Source: Candidatus Daviesbacteria bacterium (GTDB lineage Bacteria; Patescibacteriota; Microgenomatia; Daviesbacterales; UBA10151). From it: a stretch of 64,000 nt of DNA. The notes beneath the pieces were generated by a model that was not told the origin of the DNA, searched no databases, and saw only the letters and a program-made list of their open reading frames with translations. This document shows positions 297 to 63,639 of the stretch, piece by piece. Position numbers and translations under genes: made by a program. The stretch spans positions 7,497-71,496 of the forward strand of contig JACOXD010000010.1 in the NCBI GenBank assembly GCA_016176465.1. The letters run 5' to 3'. Positions within the stretch are counted from its first letter, which is position 1. Each line of letters begins with the position of its first letter.

Positions 297-355
297 GTCA
301 TTCCCGCGGAAGCGGGAATCCATTTAAATAGATTCCGGATCAAGTCCGGAATGAC
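297..355. repeat. Palindromic repeat element: GTCATTCC ... GGAATGAC inverted repeat enclosing two hairpins (TTCCCGC-GGAA-GCGGGAA and CCGGA-TCAAG-TCCGG)
   Basis: Perfect self-complementarity read directly; core related to the in-frame repeats in recX, copA and the reductase gene. Confidence 0.6.
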
Positions 356-376
356 AATATAGACTATAATTCAAGT

Positions 377-1057
377 GTGAAGATTACCCAGGTAGAACCT
401 CAAAAAACCCTTCGATTTCGCTCAGGGCAAGCCCCCAAAAGATTTAATATTTTTTTAGATGGGCAGTTTGCTTTTGGGGCAGATGAAGATTTGGTAGTGG
501 AATATCGTTTATTACCTGGAAAACAGCTTGACAACTCGGAGTTGGAAAGGTTGATTTTTGAGGCTGAGGTTGGAAAATTAATGGAGAGGATGTATGGGCT
601 GTTTAATATAAGACAAAGAAGCGAAAAAGAAATTAGAAACTATTTGAGGAACTTATCTTTTAAAAGAAAAATAAGGACCCGCTTCGCCTCGCGCTCTGAA
701 AATATTATAGCGCTTGCTCGCGGAACCTTGCCTTTTGCTACGCAAAACGTTAAAGAATTTGCTAAAGCTTGGGTGGAGGCAAGGAGAAAATCTAAGAAAA
801 AAGGGAAAATTGCTTTAAAAAGTGAGCTATATCAAAAAGGGATTAGTAGAGAAATAATCGAGGGAGCGTTAAGCGTTAAGGGTGAAGGAGAAAGTGAAGA
901 AGAACTGGCAAAGCAAGCTATAGAGAAAAAGTTAAAAAAATGGACTAGCCTCCCCTATTTGGAAAAAAAGAAAAAGATGTATGAATTTTTAATGAGGAGA
1001 GGATTTGAATACAGTGTTGTTAAGAATGTGGTTGATAATTACCTTAAAAAAGAGTAA
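377..1057 (+). CDS. recX: Regulatory protein RecX
   Basis: GTG start; three-helix-repeat protein with RecX-like pattern (YLRNLSF..., ELYQKGISREIIEGAL, MRRGFEYSVVKNVV); contains an in-frame palindromic insert at ~675-726. Confidence 0.7.
   Translation: MKITQVEPQKTLRFRSGQAPKRFNIFLDGQFAFGADEDLVVEYRLLPGKQLDNSELERLIFEAEVGKLMERMYGLFNIRQRSEKEIRNYLRNLSFKRKIRTRFASRSENIIALARGTLPFATQNVKEFAKAWVEARRKSKKKGKIALKSELYQKGISREIIEGALSVKGEGESEEELAKQAIEKKLKKWTSLPYLEKKKKMYEFLMRRGFEYSVVKNVVDNYLKKE
675..726. repeat. In-frame GC-rich repeat (reverse orientation, CGCTTCGCCTCGCG / CGCTTGCTCGCG) inside recX, encoding ~RTRFASRSENIIALARG
   Basis: Local GC spike in AT-rich gene; motif shared with 51816-51846, 52128-52154 and 56514-56559. 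Confidence 0.5.
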
Positions 1058-1063
1058 AATAAA

Positions 1064-1110
1064 CTCACGTCCGGCATAGCCGGAGGCAAGGTTCTGTGAG
1101 TGCGAAGTAT
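1064..1110. repeat. Intergenic hairpin element (CTCAC-g-TCCGGcataGCCGGA ... GTGAG-tgcgaagt), related to element at 297-355
   Basis: Inverted repeats read directly; contains the TCCGG/CCGGA hairpin module and a GCGAAG core. Confidence 0.4.
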
Positions 1111-1302
1111 AATATTACAAACTGAAGCACGAACAGGTCCTTATAGTAGTCAGAAGTTTGGAAGAAGATATGCAAACTTTTAAGTTTCATTTTTATCTCT
1201 CCCCTAGCTCCGATTAAATAGGAGATCTTCTGATGTCATCTTGAACGATTTGAGTGAAAGATCTGCAAGTTAATTTAGAGATTCTTCGCTAAAACGCTCA
1301 GA

Positions 1303-2718
1303 ATGACAAAAAAGATCATGAAAAAAACATTTGGACCAGCTAAAAATACAGATGAGCAAGTTAATGCTCAACCCTCCGCTATTCCGGTGATCACTGATGC
1401 TGCGCTTAAGGACGTTAGTACGCAAGCTTCGCTTATTACCAAAGAAACAGAGCTAGCTAAAAGAGAAGGGATTTTAGAAGAGAGAGAGCGACAAATTGAG
1501 GAAAAATTAAAAATCCTTGATCAAAAATTAGAGCAAGTAGAAAAAGTAAGAAAAGATTTACTAAGTAAACTTGAAAAATCCTCCAAGATGTCTGCAGAGG
1601 ATGCTCAAAAAATACTTTTAGAAAGTGTTGAAAAAGATTTAGCTTCTGAAATATCTAAAAAAGTAAAAGAAGCAGAGGATCAAATCAAACTCCAAGCTGA
1701 TGAAAAAGTAAGGGAAATTTTAGCAGATTCTATGCTTCATGGAGTCACTGATGTAATCAGCGAATTTACAACCTCAAAAGTCACACTGGAGGATGAAGAA
1801 CTAAAAGGAAGGATTATTGGAAAAGAAGGAAGGAATATCCGTTCTTTTGAACAAGCAACAGGGGTTGACGTAGTTATGGATGATGAATCCCCTAATAATT
1901 TAATTTTATCTTCCTTTGATCCTGTAAGGAGAGAAATTGCTAAGGTATCTTTAGAGAGATTAATTGCTGATGGAAGGATTCAACCCCAAAGAATTGAAGA
2001 GATTGTAGAAAAAACTAAAGAAGATATTGAAAAGTTAATGTTACAAGCTGGAGAGAAACTTTGCCATGATGTTGGAATTTATAACATGCCAGTTGAGTTA
2101 ATGGCGCTACTCGGAAGATTTAAATATAGATACTCATATGGGCAAAATATGATTCAACATACTTTGGAAGAAACCCAAATTGGAGTTGAAATTGCCAGGC
2201 AAATTGGGGCTGATGTTAATGTAGTTAAACTTGGATGCTTGTTGCATGATATTGGAAAAATTTTAACTGATTGGGATGAAGGAACTCACGTTGAAAGAGG
2301 AGTGCAGCTTGCTAAAAAGTTTGGATTCCCGGAAAAAGTTGTTAATTGTATTGCGGAGCATCATGAAGACCAGCCATTTTCTGCAGTTGAATCTATCTGT
2401 GTATATTTGGGAGATGCAATTTCAGGTGGTCGCCCTGGCGCTCGCCATGAAAATGTTCAAGATTACATAAAACGTTTGGAAGATATCGAGCGGATTGCTA
2501 CTTCTTTTGAAGCAGTGGAGAAAGCTTTTGCAGTCCAAGCAGGAAGAGAAGTTAGAGTTGTAGTTTTTCCAGATAAAATCTCAGATGATGAGTTACCAAA
2601 ACTTGTACATGATATTGGTACCCAAATTCAAAAAGAAGTTATGGTTCCTGGTGCTGTTAAAATTACTGCTATTAGAGAAACAAGAGCTTCTGATCAATTC
2701 TTAACTTCAGGTGGGTAA
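1303..2718 (+). CDS. rny: Ribonuclease Y (KH domain + HD domain)
   Basis: KH motif GRIIGKEGRNIRSFEQATGVDV; HD motif LLHDIGK...HH; typical RNase Y C-terminus; no obvious N-terminal TM helix. Confidence 0.9.
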   Translation: MTKKIMKKTFGPAKNTDEQVNAQPSAIPVITDAALKDVSTQASLITKETELAKREGILEERERQIEEKLKILDQKLEQVEKVRKDLLSKLEKSSKMSAEDAQKILLESVEKDLASEISKKVKEAEDQIKLQADEKVREILADSMLHGVTDVISEFTTSKVTLEDEELKGRIIGKEGRNIRSFEQATGVDVVMDDESPNNLILSSFDPVRREIAKVSLERLIADGRIQPQRIEEIVEKTKEDIEKLMLQAGEKLCHDVGIYNMPVELMALLGRFKYRYSYGQNMIQHTLEETQIGVEIARQIGADVNVVKLGCLLHDIGKILTDWDEGTHVERGVQLAKKFGFPEKVVNCIAEHHEDQPFSAVESICVYLGDAISGGRPGARHENVQDYIKRLEDIERIATSFEAVEKAFAVQAGREVRVVVFPDKISDDELPKLVHDIGTQIQKEVMVPGAVKITAIRETRASDQFLTSGG

Positions 2719-3271
2719 AATGGAACCCAAGATTGTTTTTCAAGGACAAACAAAAACCGGTAAAAAAGTAATCATCCGCTACCCTACCATGGATGATCTT
2801 TTACCAATGCTTAATTTTATAAATACTATTTCTGTTGAACAAACTTTTGTACGGCCTCAAGGTGAACAATTCACACTAGAACAAGAAGAAGATTATTTAA
2901 AAGATCAGCTGGAAAAAATTGAAGCCAAAAAAGTTGTTAAATTAATAGCTTTTATTGATGGTAAATTTGTTGGGACAGCTGATATTTTTATGAAAGCTCA
3001 AGTTGAATCTCATGTAGGGGTATTTGGGATAATAGTAGCTAATGGATATAGAAGCGAAGGTATTGGAAGGCTGTTAATGGAGAATGTAATTAAAGAATCC
3101 CTTAAAGAGATGCCCCAGCTTAGAATAGTTGAGTTATCTGTATTTGCCAATAATCCGCTAGCGCTAGATTTTTATAAAAAGATGGGTTTTATAGAGTTTG
3201 GCAGATTACCTGAGGGTGTCTTGCACAGAGGCCAATATGTAGACCATATCTATATGTATAAAAAACTCTAG
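2711..3271 (+). CDS. GNAT family N-acetyltransferase
   Basis: Acetyl-CoA binding pattern RSEGIGRLLM, LALDFYKKMGF. Confidence 0.75.
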   Translation: MGKMEPKIVFQGQTKTGKKVIIRYPTMDDLLPMLNFINTISVEQTFVRPQGEQFTLEQEEDYLKDQLEKIEAKKVVKLIAFIDGKFVGTADIFMKAQVESHVGVFGIIVANGYRSEGIGRLLMENVIKESLKEMPQLRIVELSVFANNPLALDFYKKMGFIEFGRLPEGVLHRGQYVDHIYMYKKL

Positions 3272-3324
3272 AATAGTCTCTTTACAAACGCCTAAACATT
3301 TGTTATCTTTTTGCCACACTAATT

Positions 3325-3597
3325 ATGACCAAGAATCAGCTTATTGAAAAAGTAGCTAAAAAATCCCATTTGACCAAAAGAGCTGCACAGGATGCAGTTA
3401 ATGCTGTTTTTGATTTAATCAGAGATAATCTGCAAAGGGGAGAAAAAACAATTATCACTGGATTTGGTACTTTTTTAGTTAGATCTCGTGCAGCTAGGAG
3501 GGGCAGAAATCCTCAAACAGGTGAGGCTATTCAAATCCCCAGTAAAAAACTCCCTGGTTTTACTGCAGGTAAAACTATCAAAAGACAAGTGAGATAA
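3325..3597 (+). CDS. hup: DNA-binding protein HU
   Basis: 90 aa; MTKNQLIEKVA...GFGTF..RAARRGRNPQTGEAIQIP signature of HU/IHF family. Confidence 0.9.
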   Translation: MTKNQLIEKVAKKSHLTKRAAQDAVNAVFDLIRDNLQRGEKTIITGFGTFLVRSRAARRGRNPQTGEAIQIPSKKLPGFTAGKTIKRQVR

Positions 3598-3609
3598 TTT
3601 TTGTAAGTT

Positions 3610-5091
3610 GTGACAAGATCGAACAAATATCTCCTACTAATTCTCATTACTTTACTAGCAGCGCTACTTCGTTTAAACAACTTTCAATACGAATATGGTT
3701 TCTACGGCGATCAAGGACAGGATTTATTAGCAATTAATGATTGGATTAGAACTAATCAGGTTCCACTTCGGGGAATACTTACAAGTATCGGAAGTTTTTA
3801 TAATGGGCCAATCTATTACTACTTGATTTTTCCCCTAGTAATTTTTTTTGACGGTGATCCAATTGCGCCAGTAATTCTTTTTTTGATTGCAGGAATTCTC
3901 ACTACCCCCTTGGTATTTTACATGGTTGAAAAGTATGTTGATTCCTGGACTGCATTTATTAGCTCGGTACTTATTGCTCTCTCCTCTCATACAATCTTTA
4001 TATCTAAAGGAGCTTATGCACCTAACCTGCAAGTTTTTATATTTATTCTAATGTTTTATTTTTTCTTAAATTTTATTAAAACTGATAAAGCATTAAGTTT
4101 ATTCCTAGGATATCTGGTTATAGGAGTTGGTGTACAGTTTCACTATACGTTTTTTGCAAACCTATTTAGTTTTAGTTTGTTGCTTTTAATTTTAAAAAGA
4201 AAGAAAATAGTTTCAGCTAGGATGATACTATGTGCGATTGGAGGATTTTTACTAACCTTACTCCCTTTTATACTGGGCCAGTTTTTTTATAACTTCGCAG
4301 ATTTCAAAGGTATGGCATCATATATCATAAACGGAAATGATCAATCAAGAATAATAACCTTTCAGAGCATTACAGATAGGTTGGTTTTCCCATTTTTAAT
4401 TTATTTTAGAGTTGAACTAGTTCCTTGGTTTCTAACCTATTTTTTAAAACCAATTTTTTTACTCATCTTAATATTATGTTTTGTTATTGGTTTTACAAAA
4501 AACAGACTAGCGTCTTTTACAAAAGTTGTTTTATTTATTTTTTTTGCGAGTTTAACTTTGGTAGTTGTAGGTAATTTAAATTTTTGGTGGTGGTATAACG
4601 ATTTCTATTCTCTTACATCAATTTTTATGCTAGCGATTGTCTGTTCATACCTTATTCAATATGGCAAATTAAAATTCCTTGGATTATTTATATTTTCTGT
4701 TTTAATATTTTGGGAAATCGTGGGACTACCCTTTGCATACGGAATTTTAAGATCACCTCAGATAGCAAAGGAGATAGCCAGTATAATTAAAGCAGACATT
4801 GCTAAAAATAAAGATAAAGAAAGTTACGGTATCCTGGCGTTAAATCCAATTGCTCCATCCCAAGGTTTTGAATATAGATATTTGCTTGAAAAAGATGGTT
4901 ACCGTACAAGAAATGCTGTGGATTTAGCGGATGCAGATTATGTGATTGTAGAGGGTAAGGAAAGTAGAGGCATTAAAATAGATACTAAGTTAAAGATTAA
5001 TAAAATAAATACTTTAAACTTTAATGATAAAAGTCTTTTAATTAAATACGGCGAAATTTATAAAGTAGAAAGAAATCAAGAAACCCAGTAG
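3610..5091 (+). CDS. GT-C fold glycosyltransferase, ArnT/PMT_2-like (family 39/83) polytopic membrane protein
   Basis: GTG start; >10 predicted TM helices; N-terminal loop motif YGDQGQD...; architecture of dolichyl/undecaprenyl-phosphate-sugar dependent transferases. Confidence 0.6.
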   Translation: MTRSNKYLLLILITLLAALLRLNNFQYEYGFYGDQGQDLLAINDWIRTNQVPLRGILTSIGSFYNGPIYYYLIFPLVIFFDGDPIAPVILFLIAGILTTPLVFYMVEKYVDSWTAFISSVLIALSSHTIFISKGAYAPNLQVFIFILMFYFFLNFIKTDKALSLFLGYLVIGVGVQFHYTFFANLFSFSLLLLILKRKKIVSARMILCAIGGFLLTLLPFILGQFFYNFADFKGMASYIINGNDQSRIITFQSITDRLVFPFLIYFRVELVPWFLTYFLKPIFLLILILCFVIGFTKNRLASFTKVVLFIFFASLTLVVVGNLNFWWWYNDFYSLTSIFMLAIVCSYLIQYGKLKFLGLFIFSVLIFWEIVGLPFAYGILRSPQIAKEIASIIKADIAKNKDKESYGILALNPIAPSQGFEYRYLLEKDGYRTRNAVDLADADYVIVEGKESRGIKIDTKLKINKINTLNFNDKSLLIKYGEIYKVERNQETQ

Positions 5092-6455
5092 TGGTTAAAA
5101 TACATAACGGCAAGTAGACTCATTAATGTTAAAAAAATAAAAGTTCCTATCTTTTGCAAATATTCATTTCTGATCATTCCAAAAATAATAAATAAGGGAA
5201 AAATAACTAGGGCATATCTATGAATTGCGATAAGGGTCCCTGAGAATAAGGGTAAGCTAAATGCAAGCAAATAAAAAATACTGTAGGAGTATCTTAATTT
5301 ATAAGTAGAAAATAAAAGACCAACTAGCAATATACTAAATGAAAAAAATTCTATAATAGAGTGGGCAGTCCAAGGTATAGTAAATATGTTTTTGGCAATT
5401 AAAAAATTAAAGTAAGATATTGGAGCCTCCCAAGGAAGAGATAATTTTCGATGCCAGTTCTCCTCGTTTGTTAAAAAACTAAATGGAGCATTAAATTCTA
5501 GGTGCATAAAGAAAAGATAACCTAAAAAAGGGATTATAGAAACTAAAATAAGGATTAAAGCTTTAGATAATACTGTATTAAAAATTAAATTATTTAGGAT
5601 AAATTCTAAAACAACCAAAGCTAAAATAGCTCCAGCGATGGGGAGAAGAAATGGTACGTAAATATCCATTGCTCCAACAATTGGCCAAAGTTTTAAGTTA
5701 ATAAATATTGTTTGAAGAGATTTTACAAAAAAGGTAAATATTAGAAAGTAGAGGAAAAATCTTCTTAATTTAGTTGAAAACAAGTATTTTAAACTAAATG
5801 GATGAGGATTTTTTAATAAATACTCCGCTAAAATCGCTATGATTACTGCGATGCCGATTAATCGGGTAACTGCTGCCAATCCAGCCAGAAAAAAGGCTAG
5901 CAACCATCTTTTGCTAGATTGGTTAGAGTTTAATCCAAGCTTTGCGGTTCTGGAAAAATAAAAAGCAGAGATTGTTAAAAATAAAAACAATGGTTCAGAA
6001 TAAACGGCACCTAAATAAAAACTGGTAGGAAAAATCAAAAGTGCAAAAATTGCTCTTTTGGCGATTGTTTGGTCAAAATCAATTAGGATGAGTTTATATA
6101 AGAAAAAAAGAGCAATTATTGTTGATAAGTTAGTAATAAGCAGACCTCCCCACAGGGAGGGAATTCCAAGGTGCATTAGGATATTTATTAGTAAAGGGAG
6201 TAAGGGGAAGAAAACTGTTTGGACGCTTTTATATCCTGCTTCGGCAATTCCTCTAAAATGTCCTCCGTCCCAGTTTGCCCAATGATTTAAGTATCTGACC
6301 TCTATGCTTGGAGTACCGTTCCCTTCATTTAAAAAATCAGGAAATTTATTAGGTAAAAGACTTACTCCAATAAAGGTAAGAAAAAGCAGTGCTACCCGCC
6401 ACCCAAGAAATATCAAAACTACATATTTTAAAATTCCAAGATTTTCTTTTGACAA
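5076..6455 (-). CDS. Polytopic integral membrane protein, putative GT-C glycosyltransferase (GT87/DUF2029-like)
   Basis: ~12 hydrophobic segments, conserved loop W..GGHF.GIAEAGY; convergent overlap with 3610-5091. Confidence 0.45.
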   Translation of the reverse strand: MSKENLGILKYVVLIFLGWRVALLFLTFIGVSLLPNKFPDFLNEGNGTPSIEVRYLNHWANWDGGHFRGIAEAGYKSVQTVFFPLLPLLINILMHLGIPSLWGGLLITNLSTIIALFFLYKLILIDFDQTIAKRAIFALLIFPTSFYLGAVYSEPLFLFLTISAFYFSRTAKLGLNSNQSSKRWLLAFFLAGLAAVTRLIGIAVIIAILAEYLLKNPHPFSLKYLFSTKLRRFFLYFLIFTFFVKSLQTIFINLKLWPIVGAMDIYVPFLLPIAGAILALVVLEFILNNLIFNTVLSKALILILVSIIPFLGYLFFMHLEFNAPFSFLTNEENWHRKLSLPWEAPISYFNFLIAKNIFTIPWTAHSIIEFFSFSILLVGLLFSTYKLRYSYSIFYLLAFSLPLFSGTLIAIHRYALVIFPLFIIFGMIRNEYLQKIGTFIFLTLMSLLAVMYFNHYWVS

Positions 6456-22504: not shown

Positions 22505-22718
22505 CTTTAGCCTCTCCTACTATGGCAATGAGCCTAGCACGTTCAATTGAGCCTGTCAAGCACGAAATGCATTTTTGCACCTTGCCCTATAGTTGAAAAT
22601 ACGATATAATTTTTGAAATGAATGCTAAACTTTTAAGTAAAATGATTAATACCTATTGGTTTTACTTCCTCTAAAAAGGGAGTATTTTCTAACGCCAATA
22701 AAAAGGCCTTGGAAGAAA

Positions 22719-22741
22719 CCTCCCTAAGGGGAGGTTTTTTT
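22719..22741 (+). promoter_or_regulatory. CCUCCC-UAAG-GGGGAGG hairpin plus U7, ending 5 nt before the start codon (SD sequestered in 3' arm; terminator/attenuator-like)
   Basis: Read directly; same architecture at ~39289, ~41219 and ~41787 (minus strand). Confidence 0.5.
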
Positions 22742-32469: not shown

Positions 32470-33918
32470 CTAGGCTTGCTCTTTGATTTTACTAAACAAG
32501 TATTCTTTGGTATTTTTAGATGAATCATCTGACACTTCTTTAAATAACTTTTCTAAAACTTCTCCCACTTTTGGTCCTGGTTTTATATTTAATATTCTCA
32601 TCACATCATTACCATTTACTTTTAAATCATTTATAGAAAAGGGTTTTTTTAAAACTTGTTTTATTCTTTCTTTAAATTTTTCCATTCTCCAAGAAACAGG
32701 TTTGCTGGTATCCCCTCCAAGTCTATCCCCAATTCTTAAAGCAAACATATCATCTAAATTTTCTAAGCCTACATTTTTAATAAATCTTCTAATAGCAGAA
32801 TCTGTTTGTCTTTCATCTGTTGAAAACATATGCCACCTAATTAGCGAGTATAATTTATCGGTTTGTTTTTTAGAAAGATTAAACCTTTTAGCAATATTTA
32901 ATGCTAAATCTGCTCCAACGATATCATGATTGTAAAAAGTTACATTCCCCACGGAGTCTTTTTTAAAAGTTTTAGCTTTCCCAATATCGTGTAAGAGAGC
33001 GGCAAACTTCACAATAGGATCTAGTGAGGGAGTTTCTCGCATAGTTCTCAAAGAGTGATCTCCAATGTCATAAATCCTATCATGCTTAGGTCCTTCTTGG
33101 ATTATCCCAAAACATTTTTCTACCTCAGGCAGTATTAGTTTTAGTATCCCAGTCTCTTTTAATAGCTTTATTCCGAAATAAGGACTGCCTGATTCTAGAA
33201 TTTTAAAAAGTTCATCCCTAATTCGCTCCCTAGCAATTTCTTTAATTAGTTTGGCATTTTCCTTAATGCTAGAAAAAGTAGTTTTTTCGATCTCAAATTC
33301 CAACTCTGTGGCAATCCTAATTGCTCTCATTAGACGCAGTGCATCCTCCTGGAAGCGTTTGGAGGAATCTCCAACTGCTCTGATTAATTTTTCCTTAAGA
33401 TCTTTTTGTCCATTAAATGGATCAATAATCCCTTTTTTGTCATCCTGAGGTGCGGGTCCCTTTAGGGAGGAAGGATCTAGAGATTCTTCGCTGGCGCTTA
33501 AAATGATAGAAGGAAGAAACGCCATTGCGTTGATTGTGAAATCGCGTCTTCCTAAATCTTCTTCAATTTTATTAGTCCAAGAAACTTCAACTGGGTGACG
33601 ATGATCTTTATAGTTTCCCTCTTTTCTCATTGTTGTAATTTCATAAACTTTTAAATCTTCGCTATGGTCGGCATCCCCGCTCACTTGTTCACTAACGCTA
33701 GCAGGGATTCCCACAGTTCCAAATTTATTATCATAAAAACCATCCGGGAAGATTTTTAAAATCTCTTCTGGCTTAGCATCTGTTGTGAAATCAAAATCTT
33801 TAACCTCCTTCTTCATTAAAAGATCACGAACAGCTCCTCCCACAATATAAATTTGGAAATTTGCTTTTTTAAACTTATTTATAATCTCTAAGATATCTTT
33901 AGGTATTGCAAGTTTCAT
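32470..33918 (-). CDS. cca: CCA-adding tRNA nucleotidyltransferase / poly(A) polymerase family with HD domain
   Basis: IVGGAVRDLLM..DFDFTT head motif; HD motif HDIGK; C-terminal tRNA-binding region. Confidence 0.8.
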   Translation of the reverse strand: MKLAIPKDILEIINKFKKANFQIYIVGGAVRDLLMKKEVKDFDFTTDAKPEEILKIFPDGFYDNKFGTVGIPASVSEQVSGDADHSEDLKVYEITTMRKEGNYKDHRHPVEVSWTNKIEEDLGRRDFTINAMAFLPSIILSASEESLDPSSLKGPAPQDDKKGIIDPFNGQKDLKEKLIRAVGDSSKRFQEDALRLMRAIRIATELEFEIEKTTFSSIKENAKLIKEIARERIRDELFKILESGSPYFGIKLLKETGILKLILPEVEKCFGIIQEGPKHDRIYDIGDHSLRTMRETPSLDPIVKFAALLHDIGKAKTFKKDSVGNVTFYNHDIVGADLALNIAKRFNLSKKQTDKLYSLIRWHMFSTDERQTDSAIRRFIKNVGLENLDDMFALRIGDRLGGDTSKPVSWRMEKFKERIKQVLKKPFSINDLKVNGNDVMRILNIKPGPKVGEVLEKLFKEVSDDSSKNTKEYLFSKIKEQA

Positions 33919-39282: not shown

Positions 39283-39304
39283 AAAAAACCTCCCATGAGG
39301 GAGG
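39283..39304 (-). promoter_or_regulatory. CCUCCC-UCAU-GGGAGG hairpin + U6 located 17 nt upstream of DAHP synthase start (minus strand)
   Basis: Read directly; member of the recurring anti-SD/SD hairpin family. Confidence 0.45.
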
Positions 39305-39441
39305 TTTGCTTTTAAAGACTTTTAGTCTTTAAACTACTAACAAACCCCCTCCTTACGGAAGGCAAAATAAGCAAAAAACCACTTATTAACTTGGTTTGTT
39401 TTCATAACTTTAAAAAAGTCTAACAAATACTATATAGCTTG

Positions 39442-41211: not shown

Positions 41212-41240
41212 AAAAAAACCTCCCATTTGGGAGGCTAAAA
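41212..41240 (-). promoter_or_regulatory. CCUCCC-AAAU-GGGAGG hairpin + U7 immediately followed by ATG of the TPP enzyme (minus strand)
   Basis: Read directly; downstream of mini-ORF 41261-41356. Confidence 0.5.
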
Positions 41241-41717: not shown

Positions 41718-41786
41718 TTTTTAACACCTCCTTTCTAATTTTTAGACTAAGCAAAGCTTTCCTTTTGCTTCTCAAAACGTAAAAAA

Positions 41787-41802
41787 CCTCCCCGTAGGGA
41801 GG
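41787..41802 (-). terminator. CCUCCC-UACG-GGGAGG hairpin + U-tract on minus strand, after mini-ORF 41832-41942
   Basis: Read directly. Confidence 0.5.
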
Positions 41803-41831
41803 CTAAATTCTTTCTTTAGGTTTATTTAAAT

Positions 41832-49028: not shown

Positions 49029-49307
49029 GTGTCTTACTCTGTCTATATTTTAAGAACTTCATCGAACACTTTATATATTGGGCAAACCAATAATTTAGAA
49101 AAAAGAATTAAAGAGCATAAAAATAAAAAAGGTAAGGGAGCAAAATATATTAGGTCTTTTTCCTCATTTGAATTAGTTTACTTTGAAAAACTCAAAACTA
49201 GATCTGAAGCAATGAAGAGAGAATGGCAACTAAAGGGATGGACAAAAGCCATGAAAGAGACTTTAATCAACTTGGGAAGCAAGTATTTATCCAAGTCCCG
49301 CAGCTAA
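49029..49307 (+). CDS. GIY-YIG nuclease superfamily protein (YhbQ/UPF0213-like)
   Basis: VYILRTSSNTLYIGQTNNLEKRIKEH GIY-YIG motif; 3' end formed by direct repeat. Confidence 0.7.
   Translation: MSYSVYILRTSSNTLYIGQTNNLEKRIKEHKNKKGKGAKYIRSFSSFELVYFEKLKTRSEAMKREWQLKGWTKAMKETLINLGSKYLSKSRS
49278..49305. repeat. Left 28-bp direct repeat AGCAAGTATTTATCCAAGTCCCGCAGCT (att-like, contains tRNA-Gln 3' motif)
   Basis: 27/28 identical to 63612-63639. Confidence 0.65.
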
Positions 49308-49323
49308 GTAAGATCAGGAAATA

Positions 49324-49371
49324 TTGACACTTTAACTTATTGGTATTAGTATATCCCTACTAGGGGGATAT
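49324..49371 (+). promoter_or_regulatory. Promoter TTGACA-17-TAGTAT followed by palindrome ATATCCC-N7-GGGATAT (CsoR-type operator)
   Basis: Read directly, 20 nt upstream of csoR start. Confidence 0.55.
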
Positions 49372-49390
49372 CCTCCAAAGGCGGACAAGT

Positions 49391-50305: not shown

Positions 50306-52735
50306 ATGCCAGCAGTGAGCAAGCTCTCTCCTTTGGAGATAAAAAGAACATTTTCAGTACAAGGAATGCACTGTGCTTCCTGCGTGAGGCTTATTGAAAG
50401 AGCTTTGAGTAGAACTAATGGCATATCAGAGGCAAATGTTAATCTTGCAACTAACAAAGCCACCATCACTTATGATCCTAAAAGTGTTAATGATGAGCAA
50501 ATAGAATCTTCTGTATCCAATATAGGTTATAAAGCATTATTAGACGAGGAAGTTAAATCAGAAGATGATGAGAAAAAAGAAAAACAAAAAGAATTAAGAA
50601 AGTTACAGCATAAAGTTGGTATAAGTTTATTTTTAGGATTACTAATTTTATGGGGTTCTTTTCCGGGTTTAATGAATACTGCCCCAGCTATTTTAAGAAA
50701 TTTTTGGATACAGCTTCTCCTTGCTACCCCAGTTCAATTTTGGGCAGGTTTAGATTTTTATAGAGCTACTATTCCAGCATTAAAACATAGAACAGCTAAC
50801 ATGGACACTTTAGTGGCAATTGGTACAACTGTCGCTTATAGTTATTCAGCTTTTGTCACAGCCCTTCCTCAGGTAGTTAAAAGTATTGGTATTGATCCTC
50901 TCCCTTACTTTGATGTGGCAACTATAATTATTGGTTTAATACTTCTTGGTAGATATTTTGAGGCTAAAGCTAAGGCTGGTACGTCTGAAGCAATTAAAAA
51001 ACTAATAGGTTTGCAGGCAAAAACAGCCAGAGTTTTGAGACTCTCCTCTGTCATCTCGAACGATAGTGAGAGATCTGCAGATTCTAATCTAGAGATTTCT
51101 CTCCGCCAGCTGGCGGATCGAAATGACAAAAGTGAAACAAGTGATGAGAGCAAATATTTAGAAGTAGATATTCCTATAGATCAGGTGGTTATAGGAGATA
51201 TCATTAGAGTACGTCCTGGAGAAAAAATTCCAGTTGATGGAGAAATTTTGGAGGGAGAATCCTCAATTGATGAATCAATGATTACGGGAGAAAGTATTCC
51301 AGCTGACAAAACTAAGGGCGATACAGTCGTAGGTGCAACAATTAATAAATCAGGAACATTTACTTATAAAGCTACCAAAGTAGGACAAGAGACTATGCTT
51401 GCCCAAATTATTAAACTTGTTCAAGAAGCTCAGGGTTCAAAAGCTCCTATCCAAAGAATTGCAGATCTTATTTCCTCTTACTTTGTACCTATTGTCATAA
51501 TACTTGCTTTTGCTACCTTTGGTATCTGGTATGTATTTGGTCCAACCCCAGCTCTTTTATACGCACTTCTAAATACTGTAGCAGTTTTAATTATTGCCTG
51601 TCCTTGTGCCATGGGACTGGCTACACCAACAGCTATTATGGTAGGTACAGGAAAGGGTGCAGAGCATGGAATTTTAATTAAAGATGCAGAAAGTTTAGAA
51701 ACTGCCCACAAAATTAAGACGGTCATCTTTGATAAAACTGGAACTTTAACAAAAGGAAAACCAGAAGTGACAGATATCATTGCGAGGAGTGAAATGATGA
51801 AGCAATCTATAAAGAGAAGATCGCCACGCTTCGCTCGCGATGGCATACTTCGTTTGGCTGCTTCAATAGAAAAAGGCTCTGAACATTCTTTAGCTGAGGC
51901 AATAGTCCAAGAAGCTGAAAAACAAAATATTCAACTGGAACCTGTCACAAAGTTCAAAGCTATTGCAGGGCATGGAGTGGAAGGAGTTGTTGATGGAAAG
52001 CAAGTTTATTTTGGAAACCGAAAATTAATGGAAAGAGAAAAAGTAAGAATCCTAAAACTTGTTCAGGATGACATAGAAAGGTTAGAAAGTGAAGGTAAAA
52101 CTGTAATGATATTAGCAACCTCCTCCCGTCATTCTGAGCGAAGCGAAGAATCTCAACTTATTGGTCTTGTGGCTGTAGCAGATACCGTCAAAGATACTGC
52201 TAAAGAAGGTGTAAAAGCTTTGCAGAAAATGGGTATAGAAGTTGTTATGATCACTGGAGATAACACAAGAAGTGCTAAAGCTATTGCAGATCAGGTAGGT
52301 ATTAAAAGAGTTTTGGCAGAAGTACTACCAGATCAAAAAGAAGCTGAAGTAAGGAAGATTCAAGCGGAGGGCAAAAAAGTGGCAATGGTTGGAGATGGGA
52401 TTAATGATGCACCCGCCTTAGCAGCAGCAGATATTGGAATAGCTATGGGAAGTGGTACGGATGTGGCAATTGAGGCAGCGGATATTACCTTAATAAATAA
52501 GGACCTTAAATCTGTAGCTCAAGCTATTAACCTCTCCAAAAAGACAATGAGAACTATAAAATTAAATCTTTTTTGGGCATTTGGCTATAATGTTTCACTG
52601 ATTCCTGTAGCAATGGGAGTTTTATATCCTTTTTGGGGAATATTGTTAAATCCAATCTTTGCCTCAGTTGCTATGGCCACAAGTTCTATATCAGTTGTTG
52701 GAAACTCATTACTTTTAAAAAGAGTAAGGATTTAA
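50306..52735 (+). CDS. copA: Copper-translocating P1B-type ATPase
   Basis: N-terminal HMA GMHCASC, CPC motif [26 protein letters not shown]; contains at least three in-frame low-complexity/palindromic inserts. Confidence 0.9.
51040..51140. repeat. ~100-bp in-frame palindromic insert in copA (includes perfect 14-bp palindrome CCGCCAGCTGGCGG) encoding ~35 aa [36 protein letters not shown]
   Basis: Segment has no counterpart in canonical CopA between TM4 and the actuator domain. Confidence 0.5.
51816..51846. repeat. In-frame GC-rich repeat (reverse orientation, CGCTTCGCTCGCG) in copA N-domain encoding ~[11 protein letters not shown]
   Basis: Shares core with recX insert. Confidence 0.5.
52128..52154. 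repeat. In-frame repeat GTCATTCTGAGCGAAGCGAAGAATCTC in copA encoding [10 protein letters not shown]
   Basis: 29/32 identical to 56521-56552; GTCATTC head shared with element at 297. Confidence 0.6.
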
Positions 52736-52736
52736 A

Positions 52737-53324
52737 ATGAAAGCATTACCTTCAAAGTTTATTTTAACAAAAAAACCTAAGGAATATTTAAAACAAGGGC
52801 TAACTCATTGTGGTGCTTACTCTGTAAAAGCTATTATAGAAGCATTTGATAAAGACTACAAAAAAGATCCAAGAGATTATCACACTTTTTGGTTAAATAG
52901 ATTAATAGGTACAGGGCTATGGAGATCTTATTATGTGGATATATTAAAATCATTTGATTTAAACGCAAAAGCCAAAGAAGCTAAGAGTCTAACAGACAAA
53001 GAACATTTAGATTTACTTAAGCAATTATTATCCACTAATAATCCTGTGATGATCTATGTTGGGAATGGTTATACAAAAACTGGTGAATACAATAAGCTGC
53101 GAGCAGCACTAGTTGGTCATTGGGTCACTCTTTGGGGTTATTCTGATTCAGAACAAGTATTTTATGTATATGATTCTGCTGCCCCAAAAAAGTTATACGA
53201 TAATGTTCCAGTCGGTAATAAAAAAAGAACTTATGAGCAAATATTAAGAGATTGGAAGGGTGCAAAAATTACTAAATTTATTTGGCCCTGGGAATATTTC
53301 TATATAGAAGTAAAAAATCAATGA
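52737..53324 (+). CDS. Papain-like (C39-like/BtrH-like) cysteine peptidase domain protein
   Basis: Candidate catalytic Cys in LTHCGAYSV and His in GHWVTLWGY; weak. Confidence 0.4.
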   Translation: MKALPSKFILTKKPKEYLKQGLTHCGAYSVKAIIEAFDKDYKKDPRDYHTFWLNRLIGTGLWRSYYVDILKSFDLNAKAKEAKSLTDKEHLDLLKQLLSTNNPVMIYVGNGYTKTGEYNKLRAALVGHWVTLWGYSDSEQVFYVYDSAAPKKLYDNVPVGNKKRTYEQILRDWKGAKITKFIWPWEYFYIEVKNQ

Positions 53325-53602
53325 AAAAACATTTCTTACTATTTTTTCTAGATGATTTTCATCAAGGGGCTATGAATCATTTAATACATTTTGTGGGTTT
53401 CACAGTTTTAGGATACGGATTAGGAAAACCAAGTTTATTTTTAATAATACTCTCTCCTTTTATAATGGAATCAGGACATATTTATAATTATTTAACTGGA
53501 AGACATAAAGAGCTAGCTATAAAAATAATTCCTTTACAGCTTTTAGCATGGGTTATATTTGTAGGCATCGGCTATTTAATTGCTAATTTTTTTGGATACT
53601 AA
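53321..53602 (+). CDS. Small His-rich membrane protein (3 TM)
   Basis: ATG overlapping upstream stop (ATGA); His clusters HQGAMNHLIHF, ESGHIYNY. Confidence 0.4.
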   Translation: MKKHFLLFFLDDFHQGAMNHLIHFVGFTVLGYGLGKPSLFLIILSPFIMESGHIYNYLTGRHKELAIKIIPLQLLAWVIFVGIGYLIANFFGY

Positions 53603-53603
53603 A

Positions 53604-53739
53604 TAATGGGTCTTTGGATAATATTTTTAACTGGTCTAACAGTTGGAGGCTTAACTTATTTAGCCGTACAAGGAGGTCTTCTTGCCTCAGTTGCTATGGC
53701 CACAAGTTCTATATCAGTAGTTCTAACTCTTTATTGTTA
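53604..53739 (+). pseudogene. Chimeric gene remnant: first ~28 codons of a 62235-like gene (MGLWIIFLTGLTVGGLTYLAVQGGLLAS) fused to last ~12 codons of copA ([11 protein letters not shown]...)
   Basis: 5' part matches 62235-62320 at protein and DNA level; 3' part GCCTCAGTTGCTATGGCCACAAGTTCTATATCAGT identical to copA 3' end (52661-52695). Confidence 0.6.
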
Positions 53740-55771: not shown

Positions 55772-55804
55772 TGGAGGGAGGTGCAAAAGGTTATTAATAA
55801 AAAC

Positions 55805-57193
55805 ATGAATAACAAATATGATGTTATTGTAATTGGGGGAGGATCGGCAGGGTTTTCTGTTTTGGAGCAGATTGCCCATAAAGGCTTAAAGATTGCCCTG
55901 GTGGAAAATAGAAAATTGGGAGGATCTTGTCCTAATTTTGCCTGTGTACCCTCTAAAGCTTTAATCAAATGTGCTGAAGTTCTACACACAGCTTTGAATG
56001 CTGATAAATTTGGTATAAATGTTTCTAATATAGGATTTGACTGGAAAAGAGTACAAGAATTTAGAGCAGGTAAGGTAGCTAATACTGCTGCTGCAGAGTC
56101 TGAACAAGATTTAAAAGAAAAAGAGGTTGATCTTATTTGGGGCACTGCCAAGTTTATTTCAGCTTCTGAGATTGAAGTAGATGGGAAGATTTATTCAGCT
56201 GATAAGTTTGCCATTACCACCGGCTCAAGGCCTTTGGTTTTACCAATTGATGGTTTGGAAGAGATTGGTTTTTTAGATTCTGATCAAGGTCTGCAAATAG
56301 ATAAATTGCCTAAATCCTTAACTATACTAGGTGCTGGGCCTGTGGGAATTGAAATAGCTCAGATGTTTGCCAGATTTGGGGTCAAAGTAGCAGTGATCAA
56401 TAGAGGTGGACAGATACTTGGTAGAGAAGAACCAGAAGTGGCAAATCTCGTTCAGGGATTTTTAGAAAAAGAGGGAGTGGAGTTTTTATTAAATGCTCAA
56501 GTTAAAAAAGTGATGCTTCAGCGTCATCCTGAGCGCAGCGAAGGATCTCAAAATCTGAAGCTACTGGAGATAGAAGTCAGTGGGCAGAAAGGAACAATGG
56601 AAGTGGAGCAAATTCTGGTTGCTCCAGGTAGGATTCCCAATATTGACATGCTTGATCTTAAAAAAGCTGGAGTGAAAACTTATGAGAGAGGAATTGTGGT
56701 TGATGAGTACATGCAGACCTCACAGCCTCACATCTATTCTGCTGGAGATGTGGCAGGAATCATGCTTTTTACCCATGCAGCATCTTATGAGGGCTTTATT
56801 ATTGGACAAAACCTCTTGGGCAACAAAATGGAGGTAGATCATAAGGTGATACCAAGAGGAACGTTTTCTGATCCGGAGGTAGGTAGCGTGGGAATAATGG
56901 AAAAAGAGGCCAGGGACAAGGGTTTGAAAGTACAAACTGCTTTGATGGATTATACAGGAGGGAGAGGAGATATCCAGGATGACCCCCTAGGATTAACTAA
57001 GGTGACTGTTGATGCTAAAACCAGACAAATCCTTGGGGCATCAGTAGTGGGTAGAGGCGCTGCTGAGTTTGTGCATATGATAGCCATGGCCATGCATCAT
57101 AAAATTAAAGTTGATGATTTAGATACTCTTGTTTATGCCTTTCCCACTTATGCAGAAGGGTTAGCTGGAATTACTTCCTATCTTAAGGATTAG
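55805..57193 (+). CDS. Class I pyridine nucleotide-disulfide oxidoreductase (MerA/Lpd-like; lacks NmerA and C-terminal Cys pair)
   Basis: GGGSAGF, redox CxxxxC GGSCPNFACVPSK, HPxE-type dimer interface; ATG 55805 preferred over GTG 55781; carries in-frame repeat at 56514-56559. Confidence 0.8.
   Translation: MNNKYDVIVIGGGSAGFSVLEQIAHKGLKIALVENRKLGGSCPNFACVPSKALIKCAEVLHTALNADKFGINVSNIGFDWKRVQEFRAGKVANTAAAESEQDLKEKEVDLIWGTAKFISASEIEVDGKIYSADKFAITTGSRPLVLPIDGLEEIGFLDSDQGLQIDKLPKSLTILGAGPVGIEIAQMFARFGVKVAVINRGGQILGREEPEVANLVQGFLEKEGVEFLLNAQVKKVMLQRHPERSEGSQNLKLLEIEVSGQKGTMEVEQILVAPGRIPNIDMLDLKKAGVKTYERGIVVDEYMQTSQPHIYSAGDVAGIMLFTHAASYEGFIIGQNLLGNKMEVDHKVIPRGTFSDPEVGSVGIMEKEARDKGLKVQTALMDYTGGRGDIQDDPLGLTKVTVDAKTRQILGASVVGRGAAEFVHMIAMAMHHKIKVDDLDTLVYAFPTYAEGLAGITSYLKD
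56514..56559. repeat. In-frame repeat GCTTCAG-CGTCATCCTGAGCGCAGCGAAGGATCTCAAAAT-CTGAAGC encoding QRHPERSEGSQNLK
   Basis: Flanked by 7-bp inverted repeat; homologous to copA insert at 52128. Confidence 0.6.
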
Positions 57194-63557: not shown

Positions 63558-63611
63558 TAGGGTTTCTGATTCCTACTGCGCACCAGTTCCTGACAAGCTT
63601 TTCTTTTGCAA

Positions 63612-63639
63612 AGCAAGTATTAATCCAAGTCCCGCAGCT
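63612..63639. repeat. Right 28-bp direct repeat AGCAAGTATTAATCCAAGTCCCGCAGCT (att-like)
   Basis: 27/28 identical to 49278-49305. Confidence 0.65.

Follow-up and report, generated by a model that had tools for sequence, protein, structure and literature searches.

The copA gene and the position of the insert

The DNA analysed here, a stretch of 64,000 nucleotides of a Candidatus Daviesbacteria contig (called the window below), carries a csoR-cupredoxin-copA operon with a small GIY-YIG nuclease gene directly upstream of it. The copA product is 100% identical to P0001, a protein named for Candidatus Daviesbacteria, and aligns with the solved CopA structures 3J09, 3RFU and 7R0G with E values down to 6e-49. 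Its translation contains the HMA CxxC, TGES, CPC and DKTGT motifs and a motif of the SEHPL type (read, for example, as GSEHSLAEA). The features of the operon region, together with the related repeats found in the window, are listed in Table 1.

Table 1. Genes, hairpin units and their copies in the window
Feature	Position	Strand	Basis or remark
GIY-YIG nuclease gene, single domain, 92 aa	49029..49307	+	Pfam PF01541, E = 4e-20
copA, host gene of the insert, P1B-type Cu+ ATPase, 809 aa	50306..52735	+	ORF; Pfam HMA, E1-E2_ATPase and Hydrolase domains
Insert replacing the canonical 3-residue DGK turn, 40 codons, L246-L285	51041..51160	+	Alignment of 120 homologues, PDB alignment, AF2
Core hairpin doublet GTCAT...ATGAC, 78 nt = 26 codons, REPIN-like inverted pair	51050..51127	+	Fold z = -3.9
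5' hairpin unit GTCATCTCGAACGATAGTGAGAGATCT, 27 nt	51050..51076	+	27/27 identity with unit in other loci
Spacer between units GCAGATTCTAATCTAG, 16 nt	51077..51092	+	Centre forms small central stem in predicted fold
3' hairpin unit, inverted, 35 nt, AGATTTCTC-TCCGCCAGCTGGCGGA-TCGAAATGAC	51093..51127	+	
Perfect 14-bp palindrome CCGCCAGCTGGCGG	51103..51116	.	Extended apical stem-loop of 3' unit
Second copA doublet, slightly decayed; site 2, N-domain start	51776..51844	+	Doublet-type inserts here in >40/120 homologues
Single unit in copA, site 3, GTCATTCTGAGCGAAGCGAAGAATC, encodes RHSERSEES	52128..52152	+	Best nhmmer hit, E = 3e-4
Intergenic doublet, 5' unit GTCATTCCCGCGGAAGCGGGAATC	297..355	+	5' unit one mismatch from published Neisseria NTS core
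Intergenic doublet most like the copA insert, collinear with it	1235..1307	+	Reaches start codon of RNase Y-like ORF 1303..2718
Doublet in frame within minus-strand CCA-adding/HD-domain-like ORF 32470..33918	33439..33507	+	Translated IILSASEESLDPSSLKGPAPQDDKK
Single unit in frame in pyridine-nucleotide-disulfide oxidoreductase-like ORF 55781..57193	56523..56547	+	RHPERSEGS

In 98 of the 120 closest homologues, the place of the insert is taken by a turn of three residues, mostly DGK. The net surplus over canonical CopA is 37 codons (111 nt). When compared with A. fulgidus CopA (3J09), the alignment runs up to D218 and is taken up again from E221; 39-40 residues replace two or three, and the residues taken over by the insert are those of the turn G219-K220. 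The open reading frame, the Ser/Asp/Glu-rich peptide, the palindrome and the inverted repeat described in the first-pass annotation were all found at the position in copA that it had claimed, and its description of an in-frame palindromic insertion without a counterpart in canonical P1B ATPases is borne out. The placement of the insert in the actuator linker, however, was wrong. The alignment with the PDB structures and the AF2 model both put it in the turn of the first β-hairpin of the actuator (A) domain, between the first two β-strands.

In the AF2 model, pLDDT is below 50 for residues 253-280, which are flanked by strands 241-246 and 284-289, and L246 and Y284-L285 lengthen these two strands. 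Judging from the reading frame, which has no stop codon, the insert would be translated, probably as a hydrophilic loop of 40 residues that is predicted to be disordered. No Pfam family matched the insert peptide.

Hairpin units of the insert and their copies

In both units of the insert, a loop lies between the two halves of a 5-bp stem, with GTCAT before the stem and ATC after it. The 5' unit follows the order GTCAT-stem-loop-stem-ATCT, and the 3' unit is inverted and reads GAT...ATGAC. The palindrome is its own sole match in the window even when two mismatches are allowed, and it has 0 matches in 100 shuffles. The inner inverted repeat is formed by GAGAGATCT (51068-51076), which pairs with AGATTTCTCTC (51093-51103). 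The outer pair, GTCATCTCGA (51050-51059) and TCGAAATGAC (51118-51127), surrounds both of these. As single-stranded DNA, the whole doublet can fold back upon itself; the fold of 51046-51131 has an energy of -17.6 kcal/mol, and one of 200 shuffles was as stable. Apical stems equivalent to the palindrome are found elsewhere as GTCATTCTGATCCGCCACCTGGCGGAGAAGAATC in L002 (the locus of the nearest relative), as ...CCGGCGAAGCCGG... in L005 and as ...CGGCCAATGGCCG... in L003. The ending of the 3' unit matches the 3' units of Mucilaginibacter (AGATTTCTC...TCGAAATGACA), and spacers related to that of copA are present in Daviesbacteria copies, at 1264-1279 of the window and in L114 and L078.

An HMM whose training units were all taken from the flanks of GIY-YIG genes in unrelated metagenomes matches 51049-51075 within the copA insert and recovers the window doublets 297-355, 1235-1307 and 33439-33507 and the singlets at 52128 and 56523. 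Thus, beyond copA, the window holds three doublets, two of them intergenic and one in frame in the CCA-adding-like gene, as well as singlets, and five of the eight perfect-stem units of the window are in frame inside genes. Within copA, inserts at site 3 are carried by 25 of the 120 homologues. The kinship that had been proposed between the insert and the gene's smaller palindromic inserts is confirmed, as the hairpin unit is common to them, but the insert does not represent a second, larger class: it is a doublet of the unit that is seen singly at 52128-52152. Nor is it a feature of copA, because the repeat family is dispersed and occurs also between genes, in other genes and in other phyla.

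The extent of this dispersal can be described in some detail. The pattern GTCATCTYGAACGAT..GTGARAGATCT was found at at least 118 loci (Mucilaginibacter, Proteobacteria and other phyla), nearly all of which are doublets with a matching 3' unit and with ends that have a T before GTCAT and an A after ATGAC. The 5' unit of copA is present, identical at all 27 positions, in Mucilaginibacter, Gammaproteobacteria and other loci, and the architecture of the copA core is repeated in at least 62 doublets from other genomes. An assembly artefact was rejected because this architecture recurs in many independent assemblies. A related Daviesbacteria MAG (L114) has a copy of the same sub-family as the copA insert, with the same peptide (...RNDN), in frame in the gene for ATP synthase gamma, and has other doublets in the genes for ATP synthase gamma and beta. 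In-frame genic copies are thus known from copA, the CCA-adding-like enzyme, the oxidoreductase, atpG and atpD, and each genic copy examined has a length divisible by three and is stop-free in the host frame. Units lie inside long open frames in 31 of 48 cases in CPR loci, as against 25 of 260 in other loci. Among the 62 doublets no convincing target-site duplication was seen: 44 are without a flanking direct repeat, and the repeats flanking the remainder are just 2-4 nt long, with AT-rich flanks. In viral contigs, the unit pattern was matched once.

These observations bear on the suggestion that the loop is a lineage-specific functional part of CopA, such as an actuator segment that is acidic or Ser-rich and is regulatory, binds metal or is phosphorylated. 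Its Ser/Asp/Glu-rich composition, the retention of in-frame inserts at the site in several lineages and the extension of both flanking strands in the AF2 model would be in keeping with a function. However, the same DNA and peptide are found in ATP synthase gamma, in the CCA-adding-like enzyme and in intergenic DNA, and the insert is absent from the closest homologue. The peptides found at the copA site are wholly different between homologues while the DNA hairpin plan is common to them. Together with the low pLDDT and the lack of a Pfam match, this makes a functional loop highly improbable.

Nuclease association and origin of the insert

Units of the copA kind also form the inverted ends of elements of 0.35-0.5 kb that carry a gene for a single-domain GIY-YIG nuclease of about 95 aa. 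In L060 and L032, the identical 5' unit is followed by a GIY-YIG gene and then by a 3' unit; the L060 gene (100 aa) is positioned between the 27-nt unit and AGATTTCTC..TCGAAATGAC. The L172 element, 354 bp long, has perfect inverted hairpins of 29 nt. In a sample of 80 loci selected by GIY-YIG homology alone, a hairpin unit lies within 150 nt of the nuclease gene at 61 loci (76%), and on both sides of it at 29 (36%). The density of units is 4.95/kb adjoining the nuclease gene versus 0.63/kb in other intergenic DNA of those loci. Units that are not accompanied by a gene, both doublets and singlets, are far more numerous than the nuclease-bearing elements.

The association of hairpins with GIY-YIG nucleases is already published: the NTS/dRS3 and SRM repeats and the Ssn GIY-YIG single-strand nucleases were described by Chenal et al. 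2025, Nat Commun 16:2388 (PMC11893778). The Ssn nuclease of Neisseria binds to the hairpin when the DNA is single-stranded, the cut being made immediately upstream, and such cleavage has been demonstrated for four SsnA homologues (PMC11893778). The partner nucleases of that system are assigned to CDD family cd10448. The GIY-YIG product of the window, a match to Pfam PF01541, shares 46% identity (E = 1e-21) with the nuclease that hairpins flank in L172 and 34% with a Mucilaginibacter nuclease whose element ends match the copA units; its nearest solved relatives are the UPF0213 structures 1zg2/1ywl. That the window gene is itself an autonomous unit-flanked element was considered and dropped, as there are no hairpin units directly beside 49029-49307. 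Its product is a candidate Ssn-like partner that may act in trans.

SsnA does not bind RNA (PMC11893778), which argues against a role of the repeat as RNA, be it in stabilising the mRNA or as a hairpin at which ribosomes pause. Such a role, or the removal or bypass of the segment as an intron, an intein or a translational hop, might be suggested by the stable RNA structure predicted for 126 nt (-40.4 kcal/mol, z = -2.8). Across the window, though, Rfam at gathering threshold detected tRNA alone, and at permissive E-values no relevant family was matched by the insert or by eight element-bearing loci. Moreover, lengths in multiples of three and stop-free frames would be needless in genic copies if the segment were removed. 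Intein, intron and translational bypass were rejected because of the frame, the absence of stop codons and the lack of the corresponding motifs, and the readings at the RNA level are the least probable of all those considered here.

By combining the available information, the copA insert can be described as, very probably, a copy of a dispersed hairpin-forming selfish passenger repeat and not an invention of CopA or a new domain. The copy would be a non-autonomous derivative that entered the gene, or was copied into it, at the DNA level, most likely through the joint work of an Ssn-type nuclease in trans and of host replication or repair. It might then have survived because it is 26 codons long, is stop-free in frame and is located at the tip of the first actuator β-hairpin. 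The pump would tolerate the translated loop at its surface, which would have no CopA-specific function. In the small, gene-dense CPR genomes many copies seem to land inside genes; the copies in Bacteroidota and Neisseria appear to lie almost all between genes.

A different possibility is that the repeat works as DNA, being a site for an Ssn-type nuclease that modulates natural transformation or recombination of the copper-resistance genes, in the manner of NTS in Neisseria, with the loop as a by-product. SsnA cuts single-stranded DNA bearing NTS and reduces the integration of NTS-gene-NTS DNA (PMC11893778). Three copies of the repeat lie in copA. An Ssn-like GIY-YIG gene directly precedes the cop operon of the window, and in L001 such a gene lies about 1.7 kb upstream of csoR. 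The presence or absence of the insert at one codon departs from the relatedness of the genes, as would fit repeat-mediated exchange. On the other hand, the copies in unrelated genes and in intergenic DNA follow no apparent locus logic, and in L002, the nearest relative, there is no GIY-YIG gene within 10 kb of the cop operon. A DNA-level role of this kind appears unlikely.

The distribution of inserts among CopA homologues provides information on the age of the copy. Inserts of 6-40 aa at exactly this site are present in 22 of the 120 homologues and are variable copies or remnants of one repeat family. A conserved homologous domain in close relatives, which the first-pass annotation had named as the finding that would speak against it, was not seen in the sense intended. 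This doublet is missing from P0002, the nearest homologue (80% identical), where D-G...K is preserved and another small unit stands between the G and the K. The nearest relatives of P0001, P0066, P0040, P0021 and P0020, all insert carriers, are without an insert in 100% of 200 bootstrap replicates. Within ±50 codons of the site, the window copA is still nearest to L002, and L204 to L205. The relatedness of the flanks gives no support to a transfer of the insert between copA lineages on a recombination tract of at least 150 nt. Both units of the window insert have the consensus form, and the insert seems, from these comparisons, to be a recent or maintained copy.

The insert-bearing CopAs have junction residues in common, R-[PLQ]-x-S before the insert and x-[YL]-[ILV]-E after it, yet they are not mutual closest relatives. 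In all insert-bearing alleles examined, the DNA reads CYN-(nnn)-TCT up to GTCAT and, after ATGAC, ..-TAY/CTT-WTN-GAR. The CT-rich 5' extension ..TCT before GTCAT recurs at other insertion sites as well. The 'xY[IL]' junction is absent from these sites, and it was for this reason rejected as a part of the element. The common junction residues are not an obvious outcome of simple random insertion with subsequent selection.

The shared junctions, including the 3' 'Y-[IL]' that is specific to the copA site, might instead be the mark of a single old insertion whose interior was later replaced through gene conversion, short-tract recombination or homing; short forms at the site such as QAQDKSF look like deletion remnants and would agree with this. 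Such a history is difficult to reconcile with the empty nearest relatives of the five carriers, with the undisturbed relatedness of the flanks, with the D-G...K that P0002 retains around a different small unit and with the consensus form of the window units. It is possible but doubtful.

It is also conceivable that CPR doublets are not random passengers but are copied site-specifically into codons of conserved genes by a homing-like process driven by an Ssn-type nuclease. The empty site, GAT-GGN-AAA, would resemble the 3' end of the element, GATGAC-AAA, with CGAGATGGAAAAGAA as the mimic sequence. Single-stranded DNA might be cut at the empty site during replication or DNA uptake, and a filled copy might then serve for its repair, the conversion tract being very short. 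In this way doublets would come to occur at one codon, with the same junctions, in unrelated CopA lineages. If true, it would be a new kind of in-frame 'homing hairpin', which would also shape the alleles that can be exchanged by transformation, although this idea has to be considered rather improbable.

The passenger repeat has several consequences for the study of CPR/Patescibacteria. Their proteins may be lengthened by translated copies, and peptides such as SPRFARDD can be mistaken for lineage-specific domains; translated copies can also lower the quality of alignments and structure predictions and inflate the apparent novelty of proteins. No description was found of frequent in-frame, presumably translated copies in CPR core genes, nor of what looks like the repeated occupation of one CopA codon where the nearest relatives lack an insert. 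Such a codon, refilled beside empty nearest relatives, offers a concrete handle on whether Ssn nucleases mobilise hairpins. The identical 27-nt units in Bacteroidota, Proteobacteria and CPR bear on the mode by which the repeat spreads. Three sites in CopA recur as permissive (the tip of the A-domain hairpin, the start of the N-domain and the loop after 'ILAT') and amount to a natural insertion-tolerance map for P-type ATPases.

Comparison with known repeat systems

Classical MITEs (Correia/NEMIS, ERIC, BOX, QMITE) resemble the copA repeat in being short and non-coding, in having terminal inverted repeats and many copies, and in the occasional intragenic copies that give in-frame fusions. They differ from it in their ends, which are simple inverted repeats and not structured hairpins, and in their autonomous partner, which encodes a DDE transposase where a small nuclease is found here. 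No convincing target-site duplication was detected for the copA-type doublets.

The REPIN-RAYT system (Bertels & Rainey 2011, PMC3337134) is closer in its plan. The insert, like a REPIN, consists of two short imperfect inverted palindromes with a spacer and can form one long hairpin. In both systems the doublets are well conserved and the singlets resemble decaying remnants, the repeats flank the partner gene, and the presumed substrate is a hairpin in single-stranded DNA. The partner here is nevertheless a hydrolytic GIY-YIG nuclease, whereas that of REPINs, RAYT, is an HUH/Y1 transposase, and the units are tagged with GTCAT instead of GTAG/CGTC. REPINs are extragenic and largely vertical within a lineage, while the copA-type repeat is often intragenic in CPR and has identical 27-nt units across phyla.

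The Rickettsia palindromic elements, or RPEs (Ogata et al. 2000, reviewed in PMC10969869), are likewise selfish palindromic repeats that lie in frame in unrelated housekeeping genes. They are about 100-150 bp long, occur in a small-genome host and give rise, on translation, to additional peptide segments that the protein fold accommodates (PMC10969869). The copA repeat, too, is in frame in unrelated genes, and in the AF2 model its putatively translated segment is a loop at a hairpin tip. It is shorter (78-111 nt), is made of two SRM-like units, and has another host phylum and another sequence; it would provide a parallel to RPEs in a second reduced-genome lineage. As Rickettsia is among the SRM-rich genomes (PMC11893778), a direct relationship to RPEs is possible and may be taken as a lead.

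The closest likeness is to NTS/SRM and Ssn. The published elements and the copA units have in common the 5' foot GTCAT, the imperfect hairpin, the 3' ...ATC and a length of 25-35 nt per unit, and both copA units are hairpins in the 20-50 nt range with an oriented 5' GTCAT beside the stem. As in NTS-ssnA-NTS, inverted units surround single-domain GIY-YIG genes of about 94-100 aa, copies without a gene number in the hundreds, and the family is spread across phyla. Window positions 297-320 are one mismatch from the NTS core, and the association frequencies of 76% and 36% obtained here match the published 71% and 42% (PMC11893778). The copA units are, however, of a GTCAT-NNN-GA... type, and in the dispersed form, a doublet, the left and right units differ from each other. 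The published SRM pattern, HGTCWYN(0-2)YYVSBRHN(0-5)WNVSBRGN(0-2)RNCYNB, which was checked on the NTS consensus before use, has no match in the window, copA units included, and matches seven of the 222 hairpin units around the 80 GIY-YIG loci. The copA units thus constitute a variant class, and the assignment is kept at a repeat that works like the published system and is a variant of it. Of the N. meningitidis NTS, 2% are in genes (PMC11893778), in contrast to the 31 of 48 CPR units that are genic and in frame, and PMC11893778 makes no mention of Patescibacteria or translated copies. The copA insert belongs to the NTS/SRM-Ssn kind of system in a variant form, and extends this system to Patescibacteria, to a motif class missed by the published pattern and to a REPIN-like dispersed doublet.

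Anatomy of the copA insert

The window has a G+C content of 34.7%, and its copA product is 100% identical to a protein named by NCBI for Candidatus Daviesbacteria (CPR/Patescibacteria). The first-pass annotation had described in this gene an in-frame palindromic stretch without a counterpart in canonical P1B ATPases, and the homologues bear this out: at its position, 98 of the 120 closest (69-80% identity; alignment) have a three-residue turn, mostly DGK. The stretch had been assigned to the actuator linker; its position is instead the turn joining the first two strands of the actuator domain. In the alignment with A. fulgidus CopA, the match to the flanks of the insert ends at D218 and resumes at E221, and the alignment of the 120 homologues shows that many of them have variable inserts at this place. 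The insert is in frame and contains no stop codons. In an AlphaFold2 model of CopA (mean pLDDT 78.6), which has strands at residues 241-246 and 284-289, residues 253-280 fall below pLDDT 50 and are predicted to be a floppy excursion at the hairpin tip.

Both repeats reported earlier within the insert are present. The perfect 14-bp palindrome CCGCCAGCTGGCGG (51103-51116) occurs once in the window and in none of 100 shuffles. The imperfect inverted repeat consists of GAGAGATCT, which base-pairs with AGATTTCTCTC, and both are enclosed by the outer pair GTCATCTCGA / TCGAAATGAC. Folded as single-stranded DNA, the 86-nt core has an energy of -17.6 kcal/mol (z = -3.9). Five other CopA genes with an insert at the same codon (L001, L003, L004, L005, L204) share one plan with the window: a (TCT)GTCAT...ATCT unit, a short spacer and an inverted unit ending in ATGAC. 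The copA doublet spans 78 nt (26 codons) from GTCAT through ATGAC, and its 3' unit has the palindrome as an extended apical stem; comparable stems in units of other genomes include TCCGCCACCTGGCGGA (locus L002) and CCGGCGAAGCCGG (L005). Every unit is a small hairpin by itself (e.g. ATTCT-GA-GC-GAA-GC-GA-AGAAT), and its stem triplet varies among copies with covarying complement (TCT/AGA, TGC/GCA, CTC/GAG, CCT/AGG and others).

Features of the window related to the copA insert
Feature	Position	Strand	Basis
Doublet, intergenic	297-355	+	same repeat family as insert
Doublet, intergenic, closest to copA copy; extends to RNase Y-like gene start	1235-1307	+	sequence likeness
Doublet in frame in CCA-adding-like ORF (minus strand), translated IILSASEESLDPSSLKGPAPQDDKK	33439-33507	+	sequence, reading frame
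GIY-YIG gene, just upstream of csoR-cupredoxin-copA	49029-49307	+	ORF
copA, P1B-type copper ATPase, 809 aa	50306..52735	+	ORF, usual motifs in translation
Insert, 40 codons, between ...AKTARVLR and EVDIPIDQV...	51041-51160	+	translation and homologue alignment
5' unit GTCATCTCGAACGATAGTGAGAGATCT	51050-51076	+	plan common to insert-bearing CopA genes
Spacer, 16 nt	between 5' and 3' units	+	same plan
3' unit AGATTTCTC-TCCGCCAGCTGGCGGA-TCGAAATGAC, inverted	51093-51127	+	same plan
Second copA doublet, slightly decayed	51776-51844	+	same repeat family as insert
Single unit within copA	52128-52152	+	same repeat family as insert
Single unit in frame, oxidoreductase gene	56523-56547	+	sequence, reading frame

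Dispersed copies and a GIY-YIG partner

The insert is a copy of a dispersed repeat and not a feature of CopA. The smaller copA inserts, from which it had been set apart as a second class of palindromic insertion, belong to the same family. An HMM trained solely on units of unrelated metagenome loci recovers all doublets of the window and the oxidoreductase singlet, and the ATP synthase gamma gene of another Daviesbacteria MAG (L114) contains an in-frame copy of the insert's own sub-family. With one genome scanned per species, the pattern GTCATCTYGAACGAT..GTGARAGATCT was found at 118 loci or more. Among the matches listed, most are from Mucilaginibacter, the other taxa being Gammaproteobacteria, Deltaproteobacteria, Sandaracinaceae, Flammeovirgaceae, UBP6 and two Daviesbacteria; nearly all of these listed matches are doublets (median 88 nt) with the common 3' unit AGATTTCTC...TCGAAATGACA and ends T|GTCAT...ATGAC|A, and no convincing target duplication was found among them. 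The copA 5' unit is identical to their consensus at 27 of 27 positions.

In loci L060 and L032, a 5' unit identical to that of copA precedes a 100-aa GIY-YIG gene, after which comes the 3' unit. As an independent test, 80 metagenome loci picked solely by homology to this nuclease were scanned for units (GTCAT, any triplet, 6-29 nt, the complementary triplet, AT). A unit lies within 150 nt of the GIY-YIG gene in 61 of the 80, and in 29 the gene is flanked by a forward unit on its upstream side and an inverted one on its downstream side, the stem being the same on both sides in 18. The hairpin is present at 109 of 187 GTCAT near the gene (chance expectation about 2%), and unit density is 4.95/kb in intergenic DNA beside it versus 0.63/kb in the remaining intergenic DNA of these loci. 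One locus, L172, holds a complete 354-bp element with perfect 29-nt inverted hairpins. Its nuclease is 46% identical to the GIY-YIG product of the window, directly beside whose gene no units were found.

Several further repeats were observed. In L114 (RIFCSPLOWO2_01_FULL_37_10; 884..2320 and 2660..3652), in-frame doublets occur once in ATP synthase beta and twice in gamma. L032 (Mucilaginibacter panaciglaebae, 2980-3300) has head-to-tail tandem doublets with a constant 26-nt linker aaaaaataaaaaaactaatatattat, the last copy containing the GIY-YIG gene. The sole viral-contig match to the 27-nt unit pattern is L206 (IMG/VR, 5675-5701); phages do not appear to be common carriers of the copA-type 27-nt sub-family. 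In the window, the 3' end of the GIY-YIG ORF (..GCAAGTATTWATCCAAGTCCCGCAGCT, 49272-49305) recurs with 91% identity at 63606-63639, just downstream of a small HMA-domain ORF and with no GIY-YIG gene adjoining; it may be what remains of another nuclease gene close to a second copper-related gene. In the gap that separates the GIY-YIG gene from the csoR-like ORF, the near-perfect palindrome GTATATCCCTACTAGGGGGATATCC (49351-49375) resembles a CsoR-type operator. The last ~80 nt of copA are repeated as coding sequence ~1 kb downstream (52659-52699 and 53682-53722, core 40/41 identical), with two small ORFs (52737..53324, 53282..53602) between the copies, which looks like an insertion or duplication affecting the 3' end of copA, or like what is left of another ATPase gene. 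A GC-rich in-frame stretch RTRFASRSENIIALARGTLPFATQNV (678-750) of the RecX-like ORF (377..1057) has a 50-nt, 70% complementary partner just past the stop codon (1067-1116); the pair is not a GTCAT-type unit and may represent another repeat family. Terminator-like AAAAAACCTCCC-loop-GGGAGGTTT hairpins are repeated at 39283-39309, 41213-41239, 41781-41807 and 22716-22740, two of them followed by a further common 33-nt segment (41254/41825).

Recurrence at one codon of CopA

The alignment of 120 homologues contains three recurrent insertion sites. At site 1, the codon holding the insert, insert-bearing genes have common junctions (R-[P/L/Q]-x-S preceding GTCAT, x-[Y/L]-[I/L/V]-E following ATGAC) and interior stems that vary by lineage. 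In 100% of 200 bootstrap replicates, the CopA proteins P0001, P0066, P0040, P0021 and P0020 each have a nearest relative without the insert. The unoccupied site, GAT-GGN-AAA, is similar to the element's 3' end with its flank, GATGAC-AAA. The CT-rich 5' extension of the insert recurs at further sites and is probably part of the element; the 3' Y-[IL] junction is specific to site 1. Restricting the comparison to ±50 codons around the site still leaves L002 as the closest to the window and L205 as the closest to L204. Both L002 and L205 keep D-G-K here, with a small unrelated unit separating G from K in L002. The recurrence may reflect target mimicry with homing-like copying, repeated insertion and then selection for residues that extend the strands, or an old insertion that gene conversion has refreshed.

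In the CopAs of CPR, two other positions also often take up repeat copies: more than 40 of the 120 homologues have VIA..KQS...RFARDD-type doublets at query residues ~495-513 (N-domain start), and 25 have repeat-derived single-unit inserts at ~606-616 (after 'ILAT'). The window copA and its nearest homologue share both.

Origin and relation to known systems

The insert is explained as a selfish doublet of hairpin repeats of the NTS/SRM-Ssn kind, probably translated within a permissive loop. It would have arrived by a DNA-level process relying on an Ssn-type nuclease and host repair, and its translation product is likely to leave pump function unaffected. In CPR loci, a sample biased to copA, 31 of 48 units fall within long open frames, versus 25 of 260 in other loci, a contrast that supports a filter by tolerance; in the unbiased window, 5 of 8 perfect-stem units are intragenic.

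The Neisseria NTS, CGTCATTCCCGCGMAVGCGGGAATCYRG, is an extension of dRS3, and Ssn-related motifs (SRM) are the broader class of hairpins flanking ssnA (PMC11893778; Chenal et al. 2025). The ssnA product is a ~94-aa single-domain GIY-YIG nuclease (cd10448), which binds the hairpin solely in single-stranded DNA and cuts upstream of it (PMC11893778). SRM accompany 71% of ssnA homologue regions, 42% on both sides, and the NTS-ssnA-NTS layout has been termed IS-like and likened to REP/RAYT (PMC11893778). The system limits transformation of N. meningitidis with NTS-bearing DNA, and just 2% of NTS in that species are intragenic (PMC11893778). The hairpin-nuclease link is already published there and is therefore not new; the unit-nuclease counts obtained here reproduce its figures. 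Positions 297-320 of the window differ from the NTS core by a single mismatch. No match to the published degenerate SRM pattern occurs in the window, and the pattern fits only 7 of the 222 units around the 80 GIY-YIG loci, 170 of which are of the GTCAT-NNN-GA type; because that pattern misses them, the copA units constitute a variant class. Literature searches found no description of the variant motif, of doublets whose identical units occur in several phyla, of frequent translated copies in CPR core genes or of recurrence at one codon. The repeat family, its nuclease partner and in-frame palindromic insertion as a phenomenon are already known. The closest functional analogy to the copA insert is provided by the Rickettsia palindromic elements (PMC10969869), and the closest structural analogy to its doublet by the REPIN (PMC3337134).
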